From assembly GCA_018992685.1 (NCBI GenBank), contig JACVGT010000008.1, positions 3,257-67,256 of the forward strand: 64,000 nt of DNA, written 5' to 3'. Numbering within the stretch: the stretch's first letter is position 1; each line of letters opens with the position of its first letter. The notes beneath the pieces are model-generated. The model was not told the DNA's origin and searched no databases. It was given only the letters and a program-made list of their open reading frames with translations. This DNA comes from Theionarchaea archaeon (GTDB lineage Archaea > Methanobacteriota_B > Thermococci > Methanofastidiosales > SZ-28-30). This document shows, in pieces, positions 10,031 to 34,721 of the stretch. A program made the translations under genes and the position numbers.

Positions 10031-10166
10031 CGGACCTGGGGGGATTCGAACCCCCGACCTACAGCTTTCTTCGCCTCTGCTAACTCTCTTTAGATCATTG
10101 AATCATCGAGCGGATATTCATCATCGGCATAGGAGGCTGTTGCCCTATCCTCTAGGCTACAGGTCC
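10031..10166 (-). tRNA. tRNA-Arg(CCU): tRNA-Arg (anticodon CCU) with a ~63-nt intron in the anticodon loop (canonical 37/38 position)
   Basis: The reverse complement folds as a cloverleaf: acceptor GGACCUG/CAGGUCC, D-arm GCCU-AGAGGAUA-GGGC, anticodon stem ACAGC/GCUGU with loop CU-CCU-A[intron]A, T-arm GGGGG-UUCGAAU-CCCCC, discriminator G. No CCA is encoded. Confidence 0.8.
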
Positions 10167-25394: not shown

Positions 25395-25898
25395 ATGGAA
25401 ATGGAGAATGAACTGCGCGAAGTAGGCGAAGGGTTACTCATCGCGGTTGTCATCTACCTTATCATTCAAGCCTCCTTGATGGTCACCCTGGGGGTGGAGA
25501 GACCCCTGTATGTCGTGATATCAGGAAGTATGGAACCCACCTTTTATGAGGGGGACATTCTGGTCGTCAAGAGGGCAGATCCTTACACGCTGGAAGAAGG
25601 GGACATTATCGTGTTTGAATCTCCTTCCGGAGGAATACCCATCGTTCACCGGGTGTTTGAAGTTGAAACTAAAGACGGGGTGCCATATTACATTACCAAG
25701 GGAGATCATAACAATAGCCTGGATATATATTATCAGTTCAGCTATCCCGGCGTTCCTCCTGAGCGTGTCATCGGAAAACCTGTTTTCAGGATACCCAAAC
25801 TGGGCTGGGCACAGATCAAGCTGCGGGAACTATTCGTGTTTTTGAGAACAAGATTCAGAGAGCTGGGTGAAGTGATACGATGTCCTCAGATAGTATGA
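25395..25898 (+). CDS. Signal peptidase I, archaeal/eukaryotic Sec11 type (S26B)
   Basis: N-terminal TM then 'VVISGSMEPTFYEGDILVV' (catalytic Ser region) and 'IVHRV'. 167 aa. Confidence 0.8.
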   Translation: MEMENELREVGEGLLIAVVIYLIIQASLMVTLGVERPLYVVISGSMEPTFYEGDILVVKRADPYTLEEGDIIVFESPSGGIPIVHRVFEVETKDGVPYYITKGDHNNSLDIYYQFSYPGVPPERVIGKPVFRIPKLGWAQIKLRELFVFLRTRFRELGEVIRCPQIV

Positions 25899-26317
25899 AG
25901 AAAAACCTTACAGACGTGGCCGTAGCGTTGTGCATTTTCCTGGTGATCCAGGGAGCGCTCTATGGAGTGCTGGGGGTGTTCCCTCCGTACAGGGTGGTGA
26001 GCTCGGGAAGTATGGAACCCACCTATTACGAGGGAGACATCGTGTTTATCAAGCATGTTGACCCTCACGAGCTGCAAGTAGGAGACATCATTGTCTTCAA
26101 TCCGAAAGGGGGAGGAATTCCCATTGTACACAGGGTCGCCGAGGTGGTAGAAGAAAATCAGACACGTTATTTTGTGACTCAGGGAGATCATAACGCGTTT
26201 CCTGATTCTTTTTATGCCCCACTTCCCGGTGTCCCAGAATCAGAAGTCGTTGGCACTCCGGTGCTGAAGATTCCCAAGATCGGGTACATCTCAGTGTTTT
26301 TCAGGAGACTGCTATGA
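25880..26317 (+). CDS. Signal peptidase I paralog (Sec11 type)
   Basis: 'VVSSGSMEPTYYEGDIVFIKH...IVHRV'. Tandem duplicate of the preceding gene with a 19-nt overlap. Confidence 0.8.
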   Translation: MSSDSMKKNLTDVAVALCIFLVIQGALYGVLGVFPPYRVVSSGSMEPTYYEGDIVFIKHVDPHELQVGDIIVFNPKGGGIPIVHRVAEVVEENQTRYFVTQGDHNAFPDSFYAPLPGVPESEVVGTPVLKIPKIGYISVFFRRLL

Positions 26318-26721
26318 GAGAGAAAAGGATAGCAGTGGCAGTCGATGGAGTTGTCATTGAGGGTGGACGCATTCTGCTCATCAGGAGAGGGAAGGATCCA
26401 TTCAGGGGATTCTGGGCCTTGCCTGGTGGGTTCGTGGAATATGGGGAATCCACAGAACATGCAGTAGTCAGGGAAGTGGAGGAGGAGACTGGACTTCTCT
26501 GCAGAATCGAGAGATTGCTGGGAGTCTATTCAGCCCCTGATCGGGATCCTCGGGGACACGTCATTTCTGTTGCCTATGTCTTGAGCGTCAAAGAGGAAAA
26601 GCCAACCCCAGGAGATGATTCAGCTGCTGCTACCTGGTTCAGTGCTGCTGAAGTGCCTGATAACATTGCTTTTGATCATCTGAATATCATTCGAGATGCT
26701 CTGACACTCAGGTCACTGTGA
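26314..26721 (+). CDS. Nudix hydrolase
   Basis: Nudix box 'GGFVEYGESTEHAVVREVEEETG'. 135 aa. ATGA overlap with the upstream gene. Confidence 0.85.
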   Translation: MREKRIAVAVDGVVIEGGRILLIRRGKDPFRGFWALPGGFVEYGESTEHAVVREVEEETGLLCRIERLLGVYSAPDRDPRGHVISVAYVLSVKEEKPTPGDDSAAATWFSAAEVPDNIAFDHLNIIRDALTLRSL

Positions 26722-27222
26722 GCTTTTTACAGCAGAAATCACCTGTTTTGGCCTGTATGCCGTATCCACGAGAATGGTGGTTACAGGGTTGAAATTCTGT
26801 TGACGCAGAATCGGAACCAGTTCCCTGGCAGACAGGGGGAAAGGATCCCATGAGGTGGGAGTTTTCTGGCAGTATTCGATGACAATGAGATGCCCCGTGG
26901 AATTGAGCACTCTGTAGGATTCCCTGACAAACGTGACGATCCTGGGATAGTAATGAAGCACATTTACGTAGAGAATTCCAGAAACTGCTTCATCTTTGAA
27001 AGGCAGGCACTGACAATCCCCCTGCACAGCACGTATGTCCGGGGGAAGAGTTTTCAGTACATGAAAGGCATTGTCAATCCCTATGACCGGGGCTGCTCCG
27101 AGAAAGGCCAGTGCCTCACTGTACACACCGTGTCCACATCCACAGTCGACCCACGCCCCTCTCACCGTGATGTCTGACGCTCTCAGGAAGGAGACTGCCT
27201 TCTTTATATAGTGCATTCTCAT
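26713..27222 (-). CDS. Class I SAM-dependent methyltransferase
   Basis: 'VDCGCGHGVYSEALA...GIDNA' is motif I. 169 aa. Confidence 0.75.
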   Translation of the reverse strand: MRMHYIKKAVSFLRASDITVRGAWVDCGCGHGVYSEALAFLGAAPVIGIDNAFHVLKTLPPDIRAVQGDCQCLPFKDEAVSGILYVNVLHYYPRIVTFVRESYRVLNSTGHLIVIEYCQKTPTSWDPFPLSARELVPILRQQNFNPVTTILVDTAYRPKQVISAVKSSQ

Positions 27223-27246: not shown

Positions 27247-28212
27247 TTACTGGCGAATTCTTACGTGACGCAGAAGATAGAACCAAAGAAATCCTGCAGG
27301 GATGATACAGAACATCAGTTTAACCTCATTACTGATTGATTCCACAAATGAGAAATATCCTTCAATGATGCCAGCAATGATCAGTAGGATGATAGCTCCT
27401 GCCACCAGTTGAGTTGCCTCTTTGCCTGCTGTACTGATTGATTCTGAACGGGACAACTGTCCGGGGTTCAAAACAGCATTTCCTAGTTTTAACCCGGCTC
27501 CTCCACAAATGAAGATTGCAGTCAGCTCGAGAATTCCATGAGGAAGGATATTGGCTGCCAGCGAGATGCCCAGTCCGTGCTCCACAAAGAACGCCGTGAC
27601 AACTCCCATCATCAGCCCATTGATGACCAGATAAAAGATGGTCCCCAGCCCCAGGAGTATTCCACTTCCATAGGTTGCTATGCCTACCTGAGTATTGTTG
27701 GCAAAAATGGAGGAGGTGGCAATGGGAGCCACGAACATATTCATGTTAGGGCCCGCACTTCCCCGGGAGGCTCGCTCCTCAAGAATATCCAGGGGGATAG
27801 GAGAAAGACCTGCGAAGAACTGCTTGTCAACTTGCCACCCCACATACGTTAATGCCATGGTGGCCATGAACACCAGGAATGCGAGCCCTACAAATTTCGC
27901 ATTACTGGCAAACAGCCCGGGGAAGGTTGTGGTGAAAAACTGCTTTATTCTTATGGAAGAAGCCTGACGGGTCCTGGCAAATTGAGAGTGAGACCTAGCC
28001 ACCAGATTGTTCAGATACTCCTCAGCTCGGCTGTGTGGATAATACGTGCGCACATATGCCAGATCTGCGCATCCCTGCCGATATAATCTCAAGAATGAAT
28101 CCAGATCGTCACGGGACAGGGAGGAATAGCCCTTGCGTTTGATGTGCGATGAGAGCTGGTCAAGTTCTTCCCAGCGACCCTCACGGGAAGAAATGAATTC
28201 CTCATAATTCAT
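27247..28212 (-). CDS. SpoIIM/DUF95-family integral membrane protein
   Basis: Cytoplasmic N-domain 'WEELDQL...LSRDDLDSFLRLYRQGCADLAYVRT' followed by 6 TM helices. 321 aa. Confidence 0.65.
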   Translation of the reverse strand: MNYEEFISSREGRWEELDQLSSHIKRKGYSSLSRDDLDSFLRLYRQGCADLAYVRTYYPHSRAEEYLNNLVARSHSQFARTRQASSIRIKQFFTTTFPGLFASNAKFVGLAFLVFMATMALTYVGWQVDKQFFAGLSPIPLDILEERASRGSAGPNMNMFVAPIATSSIFANNTQVGIATYGSGILLGLGTIFYLVINGLMMGVVTAFFVEHGLGISLAANILPHGILELTAIFICGGAGLKLGNAVLNPGQLSRSESISTAGKEATQLVAGAIILLIIAGIIEGYFSFVESISNEVKLMFCIIPAGFLWFYLLRHVRIRQ

Positions 28213-28448
28213 GGGGGCCCTATGGCACGATAGTATAAATGGTTTATTGAATCGCGAGGTATGGTGCTCACAAGTCCTTCACTCTACCAGGAAGGGTTCA
28301 TTGACAGGACTGGTGACAGGAGGCCGCAGAAGCTTTCGGGCTCCACGCAGGTACGTATCGGGCAAGAAGGCAGTATCCACCCCTGCCAGTGCCTCTGGAT
28401 CGTTCTTCATATTCTTTCTCACCCCTGCCCCCTCCATTCACGCCCCGT

Positions 28449-28907
28449 TCAAGGAAAATCATATACTGCAATCACCACTACACAGCCATATTCATCACAT
28501 TCGCCCTCTATCACTTTAAAATCAGGCTGAGAATTCCAGGTCCAGTCGCGGGCAGCAGCCATTTCCTTCAGTCCTGAAGCCAGGTTCGCCGTCACATCCT
28601 CCATGGTTTCTCCCCACCCCTCCAGGAGTATGCCCCCCTCCACGGACTGCATCCAGGCGAGACCGGCAGAAATCCGGGACGGGCCCTTGATGATCTTCCG
28701 CGCCATCACAACATATACAATGTCTCCGGGAATCCTGTTGCATCGATTGATGTACTCATGGGTTTTTTCAATCACAGCTCCCGGTGGAATCACAGAGGTC
28801 AAAGGGATCAAATTGAAGTTGTTTACTCCTGCTTCAGCCAGGGCAAGATCAAAACTACCTAAGGGAGTTGTTCCCTTCCCTGTACCCCAGACAATCTGTA
28901 TGTTCAT
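28449..28907 (-). CDS. pdaD: Pyruvoyl-dependent arginine decarboxylase. Probable start MNIQIVWG; the track ORF extends to 28961.
   Basis: 'GTTPLGSFDLALAEAGVNNFNLIPLTSVIPPGA' aligns with the PdaD self-cleavage region (NLIRISSIMPP in M. jannaschii). Confidence 0.8.
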   Translation of the reverse strand: MNIQIVWGTGKGTTPLGSFDLALAEAGVNNFNLIPLTSVIPPGAVIEKTHEYINRCNRIPGDIVYVVMARKIIKGPSRISAGLAWMQSVEGGILLEGWGETMEDVTANLASGLKEMAAARDWTWNSQPDFKVIEGECDEYGCVVVIAVYDFP

Positions 28908-29011
28908 AGTAGAGCAAGATGACTGAATCCTATAAGTATCTTTCTCACATATTGGAATCAATACCTTGAAACCAGGAAAACCTTTTTCAACAGCCCCCTC
29001 GTAACAGCCTC

Positions 29012-29761
29012 ATGGAAGACCATACCTTGTCTACAGCAGAGAATGTCCCCGTATATTATGACATTGCTACGGCGGGTTCACGAGCCGTGGCCTTTCTCGT
29101 TGACTACAGTATCATCGTACTGGCCTCTCTCGCATTGATTTTGGTCACGGATGCCCTCGACCATTTCGGGCTCAGGGGGTTCTCTTCCTATGCTGTTGCA
29201 CTGATCTACGTCGTGGTGGGAACATTGACCTGGGGATATTTTGTTGTCAGTGAGCTGGCACTGAACGGCAGCTCTATTGGAAAGAACATAATGGGGTTGC
29301 GAGTCATAAAAGAAGATGCAACTCCCATAGATGTTGTTGACTCTCTCACACGGAATTTTGTCAGATACATTGATTTATGGCCCGGTACATGCCTCGTGGG
29401 ATTCACCGTGATGATGCTCAATGCGAAATCAAAGAGATTGGGGGATTTTGCTGCAGGCACGATTGTAGTAAGAACGAGGTCAGTTGGTCTGGACAAGCTG
29501 GAACTTGGAGAATCATCCTACGACTACACAGTCAGCAGGAGTCCATACCTCAGCCAGATCACCCCCGACGAATATCAGCTGATGAGAGAGTTTCTTGTGA
29601 GATATGAAAAGATCCCCATTCATAAGGCGTACATGATTGCAGCAAAAATCGCCTCTGAGATGGCAGAGAAGCTTCATCTAGAAGCTCCCAGAGGAATGGA
29701 GAATTGCATATTGTTCCTGAAAAGTTGCGCCAAGTACTACAGACACAAACCAAAAGTTTAA
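29012..29761 (+). CDS. RDD-family membrane protein with a C-terminal cytoplasmic domain
   Basis: RDD segment 'RAVAFLVDYSIIVLASL...' with 3 TM helices. 249 aa. It is the first gene of a co-directional six-gene cluster. Confidence 0.6.
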   Translation: MEDHTLSTAENVPVYYDIATAGSRAVAFLVDYSIIVLASLALILVTDALDHFGLRGFSSYAVALIYVVVGTLTWGYFVVSELALNGSSIGKNIMGLRVIKEDATPIDVVDSLTRNFVRYIDLWPGTCLVGFTVMMLNAKSKRLGDFAAGTIVVRTRSVGLDKLELGESSYDYTVSRSPYLSQITPDEYQLMREFLVRYEKIPIHKAYMIAAKIASEMAEKLHLEAPRGMENCILFLKSCAKYYRHKPKV

Positions 29762-30733
29762 ATGGGATCGACGGTTTCCCTCTGTATGGACCGCAATCAG
29801 TTTCTAAGACCCATGGGATTGGGTGAACTCCTTGATTCCTCTGTCAGATTGTACAGAAAGAACTTTCTCTTGCTGGTAATAGCCCAGCTTCCTTTGGCGG
29901 TGTTTTACCTCTTGCAGAATGCTTACAATTATTACACTGGTGCTGGAGGAAGTGGACTTTTGGAGATTTATGAGATATTCAATGATCCCCTTGGCTACAC
30001 AGCTCCTCAGCAGGCTGCTCCCATATCAGCTTTTTGGAATTTTCTGATTGTCATGCTGTTCACCCTTTTTCAGATAGGGTTAATATACCCTCTGACTCTC
30101 TCTGCAGTTACCAAGGTCGCTTCTGACACCATCCTGGAGGGTGAAGCATCAGTGAAGAACGCTTACAGATACTCCTTGAAGAACTGGCTCAAACTAGGTG
30201 TAACCAATGTCATCTACACCATAGCTCTTATCGTCGTCCTGGCAGTGGCCGTGAGCATACCTGCAGTTGTAGTCATTTCAATTGTTGCATACGCAGCACT
30301 GTCTGGGGGCGCAGGATTCATGTCGGGATTAATTGTAGGCATCATTGTAATACTAACGGGTTTTTTCATTGCTGGAATCGTGTGGGTCCGTCTGTCAGTG
30401 ATGTATCCAATCATGGTCAATGAGAAGGTCTTCATTTTTGAAGCAATGAGCCGCAGCTGGAAATTGGTGGGAGGACACACCTTCCGTCTGTATGCAGCCT
30501 TGATAATAGTTTTCTTGATTCCTACTGTGCTACAGTCCTCCTCACTTATCCTGGAAGGTCTGTTTAGCAGGTCGATGTATATGGTAATCATGGCGCTGGG
30601 CCTGCTAACTCAGGGAATACTGATTCCACTGGCAGACTGCACCCGAGTGTTGGCTTACTTCGACTTGCGAACGAGAAAAGAAGGATTCGATCTGGAGATG
30701 AGAACGCAGAACCTGTCACTGCCAGCAGAGTGA
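29762..30733 (+). CDS. Polytopic membrane protein (GPDPase-membrane-domain-like / DUF)
   Basis: 323 aa with 6-7 TM helices. Its start codon abuts the upstream stop (TAAATG). Confidence 0.5.
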   Translation: MGSTVSLCMDRNQFLRPMGLGELLDSSVRLYRKNFLLLVIAQLPLAVFYLLQNAYNYYTGAGGSGLLEIYEIFNDPLGYTAPQQAAPISAFWNFLIVMLFTLFQIGLIYPLTLSAVTKVASDTILEGEASVKNAYRYSLKNWLKLGVTNVIYTIALIVVLAVAVSIPAVVVISIVAYAALSGGAGFMSGLIVGIIVILTGFFIAGIVWVRLSVMYPIMVNEKVFIFEAMSRSWKLVGGHTFRLYAALIIVFLIPTVLQSSSLILEGLFSRSMYMVIMALGLLTQGILIPLADCTRVLAYFDLRTRKEGFDLEMRTQNLSLPAE

Positions 30734-30748
30734 TGAACTGCCCATCAA

Positions 30749-31327
30749 ATGAGAACCCTGGAGGGGATACCCATGATAGTGTACAGTAGCCCGAGCCCAG
30801 AAGAGATTGAGGAAGACCTTGAGGAGATTCTGAGAGAACTTGGGTACATTAGGTCAGAGTACCCACCTACCGTTCCTCTCCCTGTATCCAAGGCAGTGCT
30901 GATCATTTTTGTTCTTGTTCTCATGCTTCTCCTGACGTATCTGGTGGTAACCTGGATTTCACGTCCCTCGGGAAAAGTCACTATCCCCCGGAAAAGAGAA
31001 GAAGAAATTCTGGTGAAAAAAAAGGATTACTATGGACTGTACAAGACAGCCCTGACCCTGGGATCTAGAAAGGAGTATGCAGAAGCAGTACGCATTCTAT
31101 ACATGGCACTCCTTGTGCTCCTAGACACTCAGAATGTAATTTCATATCATCCATCTTTAACAAACTATGAGTACAGGCAGAAAGTTCATGCCTACGCTTT
31201 CAGTGGCCTCTTCAACAGGATGACCAGCATCTTTGACGTTGTATACTACGGTGGTACTCCTGCAACAGGACATGACTTTTCCCAGTGCGTGGAAGCTTTC
31301 ACGCACATTCAGGAGGCGCTATCATGA
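30749..31327 (+). CDS. DUF4129-domain membrane-anchored protein
   Basis: One TM then 'DYYGLYKTALTLGSRKEYAEAVRILYMALLVLLDTQNVISYHPSLTNYEYRQ', typical of DUF4129. 192 aa. Confidence 0.6.
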   Translation: MRTLEGIPMIVYSSPSPEEIEEDLEEILRELGYIRSEYPPTVPLPVSKAVLIIFVLVLMLLLTYLVVTWISRPSGKVTIPRKREEEILVKKKDYYGLYKTALTLGSRKEYAEAVRILYMALLVLLDTQNVISYHPSLTNYEYRQKVHAYAFSGLFNRMTSIFDVVYYGGTPATGHDFSQCVEAFTHIQEALS

Positions 31328-32250
31328 AGTGGGCACATGTTCTCACACTCGTGGTGTTCGTGGTGGGAGTGGTGTCAGTGGCTGTCATTGCAGAACAAGT
31401 CAATCTCCCGCCTGCTCATTCTTCAAAAGACGCTGAAGAAATGGGAACCCTGGCCTTTTACCTGCTGATGGAAAAGTACACGGAAGTGGAACGAATTAAA
31501 GACACCATAGAAGCGTTGGATCCCGGAAGCCTCCTTCTGATCTATCCTGTTCGACCCCTGGCTCCAGAAGAAAAGGAACATGTACTCACCTGGGTGAAGG
31601 AGGGGAACAGACTGATCATATTCACTGAATCGCCTGAAATAGCAGAGGATTTTGGAGTGAACATCACCCCAGCCGAGGACGGACTGGCCTCAATAACCCC
31701 CAATGATCACTGGTCAACCAGAGATGTCCACATGGTCAGGGTTCGCTATCAGCAGTCCATCGACACCGATGTCAATATCATCCTGGCTGATGCTGAGAAT
31801 GTCCTGGCAGCAGAAATCCCATATGGATTGGGAGAAATCGTCGTCATCACTTGTACCTCACTGGTTGAAAATTATTCTATTGACCGGGCTGATAATGAGA
31901 TATTCCTGGTCCGGCTATCCCTCTCTGAGAAAGTGTATTTTGACGAGTACCACCTCTACCTGATTGATCAGTCAACGGGGATGACTCTCAGCAAGATCAA
32001 GACTGCATTTTCCTCCAGGTACAGCTCGTTTTTCATTCAATTGATCATTACAATTACCATATTCATGGTGAGCTATGGTAAGCGATTTGGGAAGGCAAGA
32101 CCATCTGTTACCAGGGGCGTACAGTCCTCGCAACTGGTGACTTCTGCAGCAGAACTGTACTACAGGGCACGGAAAAAGGAAATTCTGGATCTGATTGAAG
32201 CCCATTCCCCGCTTATTCACAGCAATAAAAACTCTGATATAAAGCCCTGA
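31324..32250 (+). CDS. DUF4350-like protein with N- and C-terminal TM anchors. Probable start is MKWAHVL (ATGA overlap); the track ORF starts at 31285.
   Basis: N-terminal TM, a large extracytoplasmic domain and a C-terminal TM. Position and topology match DUF4350 partners of MoxR/DUF58. Confidence 0.5.
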   Translation: MKWAHVLTLVVFVVGVVSVAVIAEQVNLPPAHSSKDAEEMGTLAFYLLMEKYTEVERIKDTIEALDPGSLLLIYPVRPLAPEEKEHVLTWVKEGNRLIIFTESPEIAEDFGVNITPAEDGLASITPNDHWSTRDVHMVRVRYQQSIDTDVNIILADAENVLAAEIPYGLGEIVVITCTSLVENYSIDRADNEIFLVRLSLSEKVYFDEYHLYLIDQSTGMTLSKIKTAFSSRYSSFFIQLIITITIFMVSYGKRFGKARPSVTRGVQSSQLVTSAAELYYRARKKEILDLIEAHSPLIHSNKNSDIKP

Positions 32251-32263
32251 GAGGTGAAAAAAA

Positions 32264-33205
32264 GTGTTTAATGATGTGGTAACCCAGATGAAAACGGAAC
32301 TCCACAAAGTCATTGTGGGGTATGATTCACTTCTGGAATTGCTGTTGGTTTCCTTCTTCTCTTCTGGACACTGTCTCCTGGAAGGAGTGCCGGGGACAGC
32401 CAAGACCTTGATGGTGAGAGCGTTGTCCAAGATACTGAGTCTTGATTTCTGTAGAATTCAGTTCACTCCGGATTTGATGCCTTCAGACATTATTGGAACC
32501 AATGTCTTTGACTTGGACACGGGGACATTCCACCTGAAGAAAGGTCCCATCTTCACCAATCTGCTCCTTGCCGATGAAATCAACAGGGCCCCTCCCAAGA
32601 CACAGGCTGCTTTGCTGGAAGCCATGGAAGAACGACAGGTGACCATAGATGGAGTGACGCATCCTCTTTGTGAGTTCATGGTATGTGCCACTCAGAACCC
32701 CATTGAGTACGAAGGAACCTATCCTCTACCTGAGGCGCAGCTGGACCGGTTCATGATGAAATTGGCGGTCCCCTATCCTGACATCAAGGAAGAGGTTGAC
32801 ATACTCCAGCTCTATCAGACGGGGTTTGATGCACATAACTTGGATGCCATCCACTTTGACTACCGTGTGGACCAGGAACAGATTGAGGCTATCAGGAAGG
32901 AGATCTTCCAGGTGAGAATTCAGCCTGAGGTCATGGAGTACATCACCAGGATTGTCAGAGCCACCAGAGAGTCACCTCACGTTGTCCTGGGTGCCAGCCC
33001 TCGAGCATCTGTGGTGCTCTTCCAGACGGCAAAGAGTTTTACAGCCATGCAGGACGAACAATTCGTTACTCCTGATACTGTGAAACGGATGGCTTTTCCT
33101 GTGATGCGCCACCGGATTATTCTGAAACCTGAAGCTGAAATTGAAGGGTTGACAGCAGACCAAGTGATTGCAGAGTGCCTGGAAAAGGTGGAGGTGCCCC
33201 GGTAG
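32264..33205 (+). CDS. MoxR-family AAA+ ATPase
   Basis: 'LLEGVPGTAKT' Walker A, 'LLADEINRAPPKTQAALLEAMEE' Walker B/sensor. 313 aa. Confidence 0.9.
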   Translation: MFNDVVTQMKTELHKVIVGYDSLLELLLVSFFSSGHCLLEGVPGTAKTLMVRALSKILSLDFCRIQFTPDLMPSDIIGTNVFDLDTGTFHLKKGPIFTNLLLADEINRAPPKTQAALLEAMEERQVTIDGVTHPLCEFMVCATQNPIEYEGTYPLPEAQLDRFMMKLAVPYPDIKEEVDILQLYQTGFDAHNLDAIHFDYRVDQEQIEAIRKEIFQVRIQPEVMEYITRIVRATRESPHVVLGASPRASVVLFQTAKSFTAMQDEQFVTPDTVKRMAFPVMRHRIILKPEAEIEGLTADQVIAECLEKVEVPR

Positions 33206-34488
33206 TGGTTCCTTCTTCTCGATGTGTAATCCTTTTTGCTCTGGGCTGTCTCGTGGCTGTACTAGGGAAGGCTCCATACTACAATGCTGTGGTCCTTGCC
33301 GTAATCATTACTGATTTTCTGATTTCATATAGACAGTCTTTCGTTCTAACGCGAGATTTTGACCCTGTCCTTTCCATTGGGGTGGAGAATCCAGTCTCCA
33401 TAGGAGTGGAAAACAATTCACCAGCCCCCCTCCGTCTCCTCATAAAGGATGAGTACCCTACAGGATTTTCCAGCAGCTGTCCTGAACTCTCAACCACGAT
33501 CCCTGCCTTTGAATCTGAGACTCTCAGGTATACGGTCACCCCCTATAAACGAGGAGAATACCTGTTTGGAACCTGCTTTGTCCGGAGAAGAAGCAGGCTG
33601 GGACTGTGGCTTTTTGACGAGGCTGTTCCGATGAAAGAAGATGCCCGGGTCTATCCCAATGTCCAGATGGTAAGAAAGTATGATCTTCTGTCAAGAAAAC
33701 AGATGTTGAACCTGGCCGGGATAAAGCCTTCCAGAATCTTTGGGCAGGGTACAGAATTTGAAATGCTCAGAGATTACCAGGTGGATGATGAGTACAGGGC
33801 GATAGACTGGAAGGCCACATCCAAGAAAGGAACACCTGTTTCCAGAGTGTACCAGGTGGAAAGAACTAAGAGAGTAGTGCTGATGCTGGACACGGGAAGA
33901 ATCATGGGGGTCAATGTGGGGGATTTGACCAAACTGGAGCATGCTGTCAATTCTGCCCTGCTGGTCTCTTTTGTTGCCCTGCGACTGGGTGAACGGGTGG
34001 GGTTATGTACTTTCTCTTCAGAGATAAAAGAGTACATACCTCCGCAGGGAAGACAGATCCAGTTCCCAATCATCTTGAAAACACTATACAATGTTAAGGG
34101 TGATTCTTTTGAATCTGACTACAAGAAAGCCTTTGAGTTCGTGGCCTCTCAAAACAAGAAGAGGACCTTGGTGATTGTGTACACTGATTTGATTGAAAGC
34201 CATATTTCCAGAGGATTGATTCAGTACTCAGCAGCTCTTCAAAGAGCTCACCTTCCCATGGTGGTTGCAGTCAAGGATACAAACATAGCCCACATTGCCA
34301 ATAGCATTCCCGGGTCGGAACGAGAACTGTACCAAAAGGCAGTGGCTCTGAGTCTGCTAAAAGAGAGGAAGAAGGCCATAGCCGAATTGACGAGAAGAGG
34401 AATGCGAGTGGTGGATGAACTCCCCGAGAATCTGACCATTTCCACCTTAAACAAATACCTGGAGTTGAAACACACATACAGAATCTAA
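33175..34488 (+). CDS. DUF58 protein (vWA-like partner of MoxR)
   Basis: 'FEMLRDYQVDDEYRAIDWKATSKKGTPVSRVYQVERTKRVVLMLDTG' is the DUF58 hallmark. N-terminal TM helices. 437 aa. Confidence 0.8.
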   Translation: MPGKGGGAPVVVPSSRCVILFALGCLVAVLGKAPYYNAVVLAVIITDFLISYRQSFVLTRDFDPVLSIGVENPVSIGVENNSPAPLRLLIKDEYPTGFSSSCPELSTTIPAFESETLRYTVTPYKRGEYLFGTCFVRRRSRLGLWLFDEAVPMKEDARVYPNVQMVRKYDLLSRKQMLNLAGIKPSRIFGQGTEFEMLRDYQVDDEYRAIDWKATSKKGTPVSRVYQVERTKRVVLMLDTGRIMGVNVGDLTKLEHAVNSALLVSFVALRLGERVGLCTFSSEIKEYIPPQGRQIQFPIILKTLYNVKGDSFESDYKKAFEFVASQNKKRTLVIVYTDLIESHISRGLIQYSAALQRAHLPMVVAVKDTNIAHIANSIPGSERELYQKAVALSLLKERKKAIAELTRRGMRVVDELPENLTISTLNKYLELKHTYRI

Positions 34489-34721
34489 TTTTGTGCCCTT
34501 TGCAGAAGACGCTTGTGACAAAATCCAGGAGAGAGGGATTGACATTCGACCTTCCTCGGACTTCGGAATTCTGTTCCTGTTAAGAGCAGATGTAACTGCT
34601 TCACATGCTTCAGCCTGCTTCCTTAAACGTGCCGGGCGCTCACAGAATTCGGGGGAACCACTCTGTCACGTGTGGATTCACTGTGAAGCTCTTTGAAGAT
34701 TCATCTAGCATTGCACCTACA

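Follow-up and report, generated by a model that had tools for sequence, protein, structure and literature searches.

The DNA analysed here is a stretch of 64,000 nucleotides (nt) from a Theionarchaea archaeon (the window; contig JACVGT010000008.1, positions 3,257 to 67,256). It contains a cluster of seven genes, which encode a MoxR-family AAA+ ATPase, a DUF58 protein and five families of membrane proteins: SpoIIM, RDD, a polytopic GPDPase_memb-like protein (GPM), DUF4129 and DUF4350. The locus belongs, as an archaeal representative, to a widespread MoxR membrane system that has been predicted computationally and is experimentally uncharacterised. The same seven families are linked in Theionarchaeal and in bacterial loci, and hence the arrangement is far beyond chance. 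We give an even chance to the reading that the six plus-strand genes form one operon, and that their products and the divergently encoded SpoIIM make up a conserved MoxR system at the membrane, which remodels its own membrane proteins. The analysis contributes an archaeal member and a cleaner parts list for the predicted system, and no new principle. Its additions are the list of seven families with their conservation in two domains of life, the shift of the SpoIIM/RDD pair to the opposite end, the prediction that most soluble parts lie in the cytoplasm, and a degenerate metal-ion-dependent adhesion site (MIDAS) in the DUF58 protein.

Conservation of the cluster in Theionarchaea and bacteria

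The full set of seven is linked in five independent loci of Theionarchaea, not counting the window and a duplicate locus. In bacteria (Actinobacteria, Deltaproteobacteria, Vulcanimicrobiota and Chloroflexota), six loci have it complete and two more have it truncated by contig ends. Theionarchaeal relatives with DUF4350 identities of 71%, 46-48% and lower retain the whole set in the same order. The bacterial search began from homologues of the polytopic protein, not from MoxR. In an actinobacterial metagenome-assembled genome (MAG; locus L006), the genes for the polytopic, DUF4129, DUF4350, MoxR and DUF58 proteins are followed by divergent SpoIIM and RDD genes, with precomputed Pfam labels for all seven. 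The order polytopic>DUF4129>DUF4350>MoxR>DUF58>SpoIIM<RDD> was also found in two further Actinobacteria, one Deltaproteobacteria, one Vulcanimicrobiota and one Thermoflexales MAG, and, truncated by contig ends, in two unclassified bacteria. Kallotenue (Chloroflexota) and a second Chloroflexi-type contig carry five of the seven families, in the order polytopic-DUF4129-DUF4350-(second polytopic)-MoxR-DUF58.

Every protein of the window's cluster aligns one-to-one and over its full length with a bacterial counterpart. Identities to the cluster-linked bacterial proteins are 53-60% for MoxR, 33-39% for DUF58, 28-37% for RDD (collinear over the full length) and 28-34% for SpoIIM (over ~310-330 amino acids, aa). 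In every locus with a SpoIIM match (12 counted, plus L087), RDD is encoded near SpoIIM on the opposite strand. The two are immediate neighbours except in the window and L001/L002, where a gene for pyruvoyl-dependent arginine decarboxylase (pdaD) lies between them, and in L003/L004, where GPM genes do. The archaeal arrangement equals the bacterial one with the divergent SpoIIM/RDD pair shifted to the opposite end. An initial annotation, made from the window's sequence, had held that the set recurs across bacteria and archaea, and the linkage of seven families in Theionarchaea and several bacterial phyla bears this out. The comparison of gene neighbourhoods finds the genes co-conserved in related genomes, with the order kept in Theionarchaea and the SpoIIM/RDD pair moved in bacteria.

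Among the Theionarchaeal loci, the window and L001/L002 alone have pdaD between SpoIIM and RDD; L003, L004 and L087 lack it there. Because SpoIIM is directly divergent from the cluster in these last three loci, gene order identifies pdaD as a lineage-specific insertion into the divergent promoter region, outside the cluster's own parts, and SpoIIM as an ancestral neighbour. The initial annotation had placed a SpoIIM gene near the six, about 800 bp upstream on the other strand. This gene does belong with the set, as in three other Theionarchaeal loci and in the bacterial loci it diverges directly from the cluster or from RDD. The distance is also accurate (799 nt between the SpoIIM and RDD starts, on opposite strands), but the pdaD gene in the gap had been overlooked.

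That the genes are mere syntenic neighbours with unrelated functions is a reading to which we attach hardly any probability. The insertion of pdaD between SpoIIM and RDD is compatible with it, as are the many DUF4350 loci without MoxR or DUF58. It is contradicted by the linkage of seven families across Archaea and no fewer than four phyla of Bacteria, in a conserved order and with reading frames that overlap or nearly do so. Open reading frames (ORFs) were labelled with hidden Markov models built from the window and the loci found, and spot-checked with Pfam; these Pfam checks contradict the view that the linkage is an artefact of the labels.

Gene layout and transcription signals

The named ORFs are all present according to Pfam and the ORF list, with SpoIIM on the minus strand and the six other genes on the plus strand between 29012 and 34488 (Table 1). 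Pfam confirms each of the domains that had been assigned to them initially, i.e. SpoIIM, RDD, DUF4129, DUF4350, MoxR and DUF58.

The tight packing that had been described for the six genes stands in part. The DUF4129 and DUF4350 genes overlap in ATGA, with AGGAGG upstream, and the GTG start of MoxR follows a 13-nt spacer with GAGGTG in front. MoxR and DUF58 have one base in common (TAGTG), with GGTGGAGGTG upstream. In contrast, a TAAATG abutment and a 15-nt spacer, which had also been reported, arise from the choice of the longest ORFs for genes 2 and 3. The length of the NCBI model, the lengths of the orthologues and the GGAGGGG before 30773 indicate that the polytopic gene probably starts at 29786 and the DUF4129 gene at 30773, the latter giving the same 184 aa as in L001. 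With these starts the spacers become 24 and 39 nt, and the packing is still tight.

The putative promoter upstream of RDD includes an A/T-rich box 22-29 nt before the ATG. The promoter element is kept in L001, and L087 and L003 have a TTTTAAA or TTTAAAT box at equal distance upstream of RDD. The RDD start has no Shine-Dalgarno sequence in front of it, whereas the internal genes carry GGAGG-type sites. A leaderless first gene followed by internal genes led by Shine-Dalgarno sequences is the usual archaeal pattern, and RDD, as the first gene, would be leaderless. Downstream of DUF58, a gap of 267 nt precedes a glutamyl-tRNA synthetase gene of the archaeal type (Pfam tRNA-synt_1c). The GC content of the region is ~0.48, the same as in the rest of the window, and hence gives no sign of recent import. 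An archaeal origin of the window is consistent with this synthetase, with the pdaD gene and with the intron-containing tRNA described below.

Table 1. Coordinates of the cluster genes, the inserted pdaD gene and candidate transcription signals in the window (TFB recognition element, BRE).
Feature	Position	Strand	Evidence and remarks
SpoIIM/DUF95 membrane protein, 321 aa	27247..28212	-	Pfam SpoIIM PF01944, E=1e-31, 110.6 bits
Pyruvoyl-dependent arginine decarboxylase (pdaD)	28449..28907/28961	-	Pfam PvlArgDC, E=3e-26
Putative archaeal promoter	28975..28990	+	BRE-like GGAAAACC and TATA-like TTTTTCAA, 22-37 nt upstream of the RDD ATG
RDD membrane protein, 249 aa	29012..29761	+	Pfam RDD PF06271, E=5e-19, 69.4 bits, full-length profile
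Polytopic membrane protein (GPM)	29762..30733 (probable start 29786, 315 aa)	+	Sub-threshold GPDPase_memb
DUF4129 protein	30749..31327 (probable start 30773, 184 aa)	+	Pfam DUF4129, E=3e-10
DUF4350 protein, 308 aa	31324..32250 (longest ORF from 31285)	+	Pfam DUF4350, E=2e-18
MoxR-family AAA+ ATPase, 313 aa, GTG start	32264..33205	+	AAA_3, E=1e-63 (213 bits); AAA_lid_2 (69 bits)
DUF58 protein, 427 aa from GTG 33205	33205..34488 (longest ORF from 33175)	+	DUF58 PF01882, E=2e-26, 93 bits
TTTT run	34489..34492	+	Directly 3' of the DUF58 stop; possible archaeal oligo-T terminator

The MoxR ATPase and the DUF58 protein

The translation of the MoxR gene has intact Walker A (GVPGTAKT) and Walker B (LLADE) motifs, and matches the MoxR structure PDB 2r44 at E=5e-80. 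Hydropathy gives no transmembrane (TM) segment. The protein is predicted to form an ATP-driven hexamer. It also matches Pfam bpMoxR (E=5e-12), with a score of 45.7 bits that is far under the 213 bits for AAA_3. Together with a marginal likeness of RDD to the C-terminus of PD-T4-6 (E=6e-4, PADLOC), this match could point to a ternary MoxR-vWA system of biological conflict or phage defence. We consider such a system very improbable, given the large difference between the two scores and the absence from the Pfam results of an effector domain, a beta-propeller or another third component. Moreover, PADLOC returns no significant family for six of the seven proteins, and its matches are marginal (E of at least 6e-4), while the GC content is native and the synteny with flanking housekeeping genes is stable across diverged Theionarchaea.

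The DUF58 protein scores 28.0 bits against Pfam VWA_2, above the cut-off of 27, and is therefore vWA-like. The initial annotation had described the cluster as lacking vWA, transglutaminase and TPR components. For transglutaminase and TPR this is correct, but not for vWA, in view of the VWA_2 match and of the treatment of this component as a vWA protein by Makarova et al. 2015 (PMC5898192). At its N-terminus, the protein has a hairpin of two hydrophobic helices that is kept in all 23 orthologues compared. Basic residues follow the second helix, which would put the bulk of DUF58 in the cytoplasm, together with MoxR.

At the vWA MIDAS position the window reads D-T-G-R-I, around 'VVLMLDTGRIMG', and the canonical DxSxS is absent. 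The pattern D-x-[GS]-R-x-M, in which the second position is T, A, L or M and the arginine is invariant, replaces DxSxS in 23 of 23 cluster-linked DUF58 proteins. DUF58 thus appears to carry a degenerate MIDAS with an invariant arginine. The placement of the motif depends on the VWA_2 profile starting at residue 234 and is partly inference.

These residues bear on the possibility that MoxR and DUF58 act as a maturation factor, inserting a metal or cofactor into a distant client (cf. NorQ-NorD, CoxD-CoxE), while the membrane proteins only localise or regulate them. Characterised MoxR-vWA pairs generally behave in this way, and the nearly invariant F-D-E-Y-H of the DUF4350 ectodomain could bind a metal or ligand. 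We nevertheless regard a maturation factor as quite unlikely. The MIDAS serines are replaced throughout the 23 orthologues, the compared loci contain no conserved metalloenzyme gene linked to the cluster, and five membrane families that are co-conserved and collinear over their full length argue for clients rather than mere anchors.

The DUF4129 and DUF4350 proteins

In the DUF4129 protein, an acidic tail of ~40 aa at the N-terminus leads into a single TM helix, and the DUF4129 domain forms the C-terminal part. Lysine and arginine are enriched on the C-terminal side of the TM helix in archaeal and bacterial orthologues alike, and on account of this flank the DUF4129 domain is predicted to be cytoplasmic. 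Bacterial DUF4129 proteins have an extra N-terminal extracytoplasmic region of ~150 aa, which has no counterpart in the archaeal ones.

The DUF4350 protein is 100% identical to HXS52_03495 from a Theionarchaea archaeon MAG. In its AlphaFold model (pLDDT 81), an alpha/beta ectodomain is framed by a TM helix at either end, the C-terminal one being followed by a cytoplasmic helix; the N-terminal segment is a TM or signal anchor. According to hydropathy and alignment columns, the extracytoplasmic domain is acidic, and the basic cytoplasmic tail bears a conserved RFGxPRP motif. Nearly invariant are F-D-E-Y-H, which closes the last strand, and R-F-G, which lies immediately on the inner side of the membrane. 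Foldseek relates the ectodomain to the N-terminal domain of IFT52 and to GH35/GH42-type domains (E 3e-6 to 1e-3, identities of 11-16%), with E=1.4e-5 and a TM-score of 0.60 on the target for IFT52. The modelled ectodomain thus has a GldG/IFT52 (GIFT)-like fold. A search of solved structures with the DUF4350 profile gave weak matches only.

In L007, L010, L017, L018 and L030 (Blastocatellia MAGs and MAGs labelled Clostridia), DUF4350 directly follows a TPR protein of ~800 aa among housekeeping genes, and MoxR, DUF58 and DUF4129 are lacking. The TPR-linked DUF4350 appears to be a different context of the same ectodomain family.

A GIFT-like fold in DUF4350, which the model confirms, favours a dedicated secretion system, in which the polytopic proteins would form the channel and MoxR would power the export of a protein or polymer. 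The prediction made in 2015 was built on the link of GldG to gliding and type IX secretion (PMC5898192), and SpoIIM/DUF95 proteins are reported from clusters for the export and maturation of circular bacteriocins. We judge a secretion system unlikely, as the Theionarchaeal and bacterial loci compared have no conserved gene for a candidate substrate and no part of the cluster resembles a known channel or secretin (the Foldseek matches of the polytopic protein have E of at least 0.04). Furthermore, the soluble mass is mostly predicted to be cytoplasmic, and the Ig-like S-layer parts of the 2015 model are absent.

The polytopic protein, SpoIIM and RDD

The polytopic protein scores 19.9 bits against Pfam GPDPase_memb, below the gathering cut-off of 29.6. 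Its homologues, down to 24% identity, are annotated as PF10110, PF25231, PF06790 or PF06161, and through them the protein is placed by homology in the GPDPase_memb/DUF7847/UPF0259/DUF975 superfamily. The AlphaFold model (pLDDT 89.5) and hydropathy both give ~6 TM helices, where seven had been annotated initially. Both termini carry nearly invariant, charged motifs (G13, L16, D17, Y23 and R24; Y291, R295, R297, K298, E299, G300 and D302).

Compared with the PDB by Foldseek, the model of the polytopic protein shows a weak likeness to CTL1/PNS1 and CysZ only (E 0.04-0.5, TM-score 0.4). A transporter label for the protein was dropped, as the matches to PDB transporters are not significant. The same matches are relevant to the idea that RDD and the GPDPase_memb-like protein form an ATP-regulated transporter for ions or small solutes. 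A Halobacillus RDD protein is reportedly a Na+(Li+,K+)/H+ antiporter, and the weak likeness to CTL1/PNS1 and CysZ points in the same direction. In addition to the non-significance of these matches, a transporter would leave the need for a vWA adaptor, DUF4129 and a GIFT ectodomain unexplained. NCBIfam has nothing for six of the seven proteins and gives no transporter match. We therefore consider a transporter improbable.

Two Theionarchaeal relatives hold two paralogues of the polytopic protein. GPM was duplicated independently in some Theionarchaea, and the copies flank RDD (L003:4271-6224, L004:4551-7280). In Chloroflexota a second GPM, to which Pfam is blind, lies between DUF4350 and MoxR (L005:12144-13070, L088:9002-9943). 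These duplications may hint at a hetero- or homodimeric unit. In the same two Theionarchaeal loci, 240-430 nt without a called gene precede DUF4129 (L003:7023-7449, L004:7281-7602), where the window is tightly packed. The membrane gene upstream of this gap is RDD in L003 and the second GPM copy in L004, and the gaps may contain an internal promoter or a small ORF that escaped gene calling.

By hydropathy, SpoIIM has a soluble N-terminal domain of ~100 aa followed by 5-6 TM helices. In the annotation of the orthologues (DUF8413+SpoIIM), the N-terminal domain is PF28475 DUF8413. RDD has ~3 TM helices and a soluble C-terminal region of ~100 aa. A sequence search found no solved structure for the SpoIIM, RDD, DUF4129 or DUF58 components.

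Proposed mechanism and evidence for and against it

Characterised MoxR ATPases (RavA-ViaA, CbbQ-CbbO, NorQ-NorD) mature or remodel a target complex together with a vWA partner, and the MoxR-DUF58 mechanism proposed here follows these pairs by analogy. A cytoplasmic MoxR hexamer would pair with the vWA-fold DUF58 adaptor, which would be tethered to the membrane by its N-terminal hairpin. The two would spend ATP to assemble, activate or conformationally remodel a complex of RDD, GPDPase_memb-like, SpoIIM, DUF4129 and DUF4350 proteins. Most of the soluble domains other than the DUF4350 ectodomain are predicted to be cytoplasmic, and the coupling could run through handles on this side: the domain of DUF4129, the tail with RFGxPRP at the end of DUF4350, both charged ends of the polytopic protein and the soluble N-terminus of SpoIIM. 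The GIFT domain of DUF4350 would be the sole large extracytoplasmic element, with the effect read out at the cell surface. Because of this single external element, the output is probably at the cell surface or envelope, as remodelling of a surface structure or of the envelope, or as handling of an exported or membrane substrate.

The initial annotation had suggested a MoxR-driven machine for assembly or insertion. Such a machine may reasonably be inferred, and a similar idea was already proposed in 2015 for the DUF4350-MoxR-vWA core. The initial annotation had added that the set has no established function. None was found in the searchable literature either, where the DUF names and the Rv3689-Rv3695 names appear in large-scale tables only, without a functional study of any member.

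Two mycobacterial studies provide experimental hints, though weak ones. In Mycobacterium tuberculosis, co-immunoprecipitation of Rv0954, a membrane protein associated with the divisome, recovered both Rv3694c (SpoIIM) and Rv3695 (RDD) (PMC8093794). In M. chelonae, six orthologues shift together in RNA-seq (PMC8191103).

Several observations weigh against the proposed MoxR system. The co-regulated block in M. chelonae is contiguous and comprises at least 11 listed genes, including glpK and glpF (PMC8191103), and the co-regulation could therefore reflect a deletion or regional silencing, not an operon. A genome scan keyed on the DUF4350 motif [VIL]xFDEYHHG, taken from an alignment of nine sequences, confirmed at least 565 loci, of which 80 were returned; these are biased to relatives of one bacterial query, so that fractions in this census are not population estimates. 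In this biased sample, 51 loci were untruncated, of which 24 have MoxR nearby, 11 have DUF58 and four have SpoIIM and RDD, while DUF4350 occurs without any partner in 16; those of the 16 that were checked are Blastocatellia MAGs and a MAG labelled Clostridia, with the TPR gene directly upstream. The cluster is thus modular, and its membrane proteins evidently do not need an ATPase gene next to theirs. Furthermore, DUF58, without the serines of DxSxS, may not bind its targets as CbbO or NorD do, and its contact chemistry may differ. Finally, the topologies derive from hydropathy and the positive-inside rule alone.

A bolder version of the proposed MoxR system is possible but doubtful. It holds that the seven proteins form one physical machine common to Archaea and Bacteria, M. 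tuberculosis included, in which the AAA+ ATPase would act through a pseudo-MIDAS vWA adaptor to drive a surface GIFT domain across the membrane. If true, envelope biogenesis or export would here be served by a type of apparatus that has not been characterised before. Should the seven proteins act as a unit in any form, they would constitute a widely distributed membrane system, found in Theionarchaea, Actinobacteria (including M. tuberculosis Rv3689-Rv3695), Chloroflexota, Deltaproteobacteria and Vulcanimicrobiota, and five families named as domains of unknown function would gain a context at once. With the conserved set, its order and its predicted sidedness defined, concrete experiments become possible in M. 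smegmatis and other tractable relatives.

Neighbouring genes

A small class I S-adenosylmethionine (SAM) methyltransferase is encoded at 26713-27222 (-), 24 nt downstream of SpoIIM and on the same strand, and SpoIIM is directly followed by a methyltransferase gene in every Theionarchaeal locus examined. Next to the one in the window, at 25395-26721 (+), are two tandem S26 signal-peptidase genes and a NUDIX gene, identities that were assigned in the window by synteny and equal lengths with L001 only. Further away, Rfam reports a tRNA at 10031-10166 (-) with 56.5 bits; it spans 136 nt against a model of 71 positions, and hence presumably contains an intron of ~60 nt. ARAGORN found no tRNA in the whole window.

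Comparison with known systems

Operons of the MRP subfamily of MoxR proteins (Bacteroides Bat aerotolerance; mycobacterial moxR1-Rv1480-Rv1481) resemble the window in that an AAA_3 MoxR gene is immediately followed by DUF58 (PMC12067865). Bat-type operons have the order MoxR-DUF58-vWA-vWA-TPR. In contrast, the window has no BatA/BatB-type vWA proteins and no TPR proteins (BatC/BatE), and has four other membrane families instead.

The DUF4129 domain follows the last TM helix of TgpA-type transglutaminases. TgpA-type MoxR-DUF58-transglutaminase operons and the bifidobacterial PFNA cluster have the MoxR and DUF58 pair in common with the window. TgpA-type operons carry a transglutaminase, whereas the window has no transglutaminase domain and its DUF4129 domain stands alone on a single-pass protein. 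A transglutaminase of the cytoplasmic type (Bact_transglu_N and Transglut_core) was observed in the Capsulimonadaceae (Armatimonadota) at L045:12213-13085, after the MoxR gene of a polytopic-DUF4129-DUF4350-MoxR cluster and in place of DUF58. Other Armatimonadota loci also have no DUF58 match after MoxR.

SpoIIM of Bacillus subtilis, the scaffold of the SpoIID-SpoIIM-SpoIIP engulfment complex, is polytopic and belongs to the same family (PF01944) as the protein in the window. The subfamily in the window differs in its extra N-terminal DUF8413 domain and its pairing with RDD. Archaea have no homologues of SpoIID or SpoIIP, and SpoIIM was noted, separately, beside vWA and COG0714 genes in some bacteria (Makarova et al. 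2015; PMC5898192).

The archaeal DUF4350-MoxR-vWA neighbourhood was described by Makarova, Galperin and Koonin in 2015, who proposed that it encodes a secretion or membrane-remodelling complex and who tied DUF4350 to GldG by HHpred (PMC5898192). The GIFT domain of GldG and IFT52 has the fold modelled here for the DUF4350 ectodomain, but the window has no linked ABC transporter (GldA/GldF). The predicted system associated with arCOG01314 and the window agree in their DUF4350 protein, which has an N-terminal signal or TM segment, a large GldG-like ectodomain and a C-terminal TM segment. They also agree in having DUF4350 in one operon with a COG0714 MoxR ATPase and a vWA protein, which in the former is an Ig+vWA DUF58 protein. 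The accessories of the arCOG01314 system are Ig-like S-layer types (arCOG02884/pfam07760, arCOG02487, arCOG03442). According to Pfam, none of these occurs in the window's cluster, which has RDD, GPDPase_memb-like, DUF4129 and SpoIIM proteins instead. Moreover, the vWA protein of 2015 was called 'likely secreted' (PMC5898192), whereas the hairpin and the positive-inside rule predict that DUF58 of the window is cytoplasmic.

Among bacteria, a published table lists a membrane protein, DUF4350, MoxR, DUF58, SpoIIM and RDD for M. tuberculosis Rv3689-Rv3695, the moxR2 region (PMC8191103). Judged by the names in this table, Rv3689-Rv3695 and M. chelonae MAB_0386c-MAB_0392c contain the same families as the window. 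In length, the DUF4129 and DUF4350 proteins of bacteria exceed those of the window by 80-150 aa, and the SpoIIM/RDD pair follows DUF58 in the mycobacterial locus, whereas it precedes the first gene of the cluster in the window.

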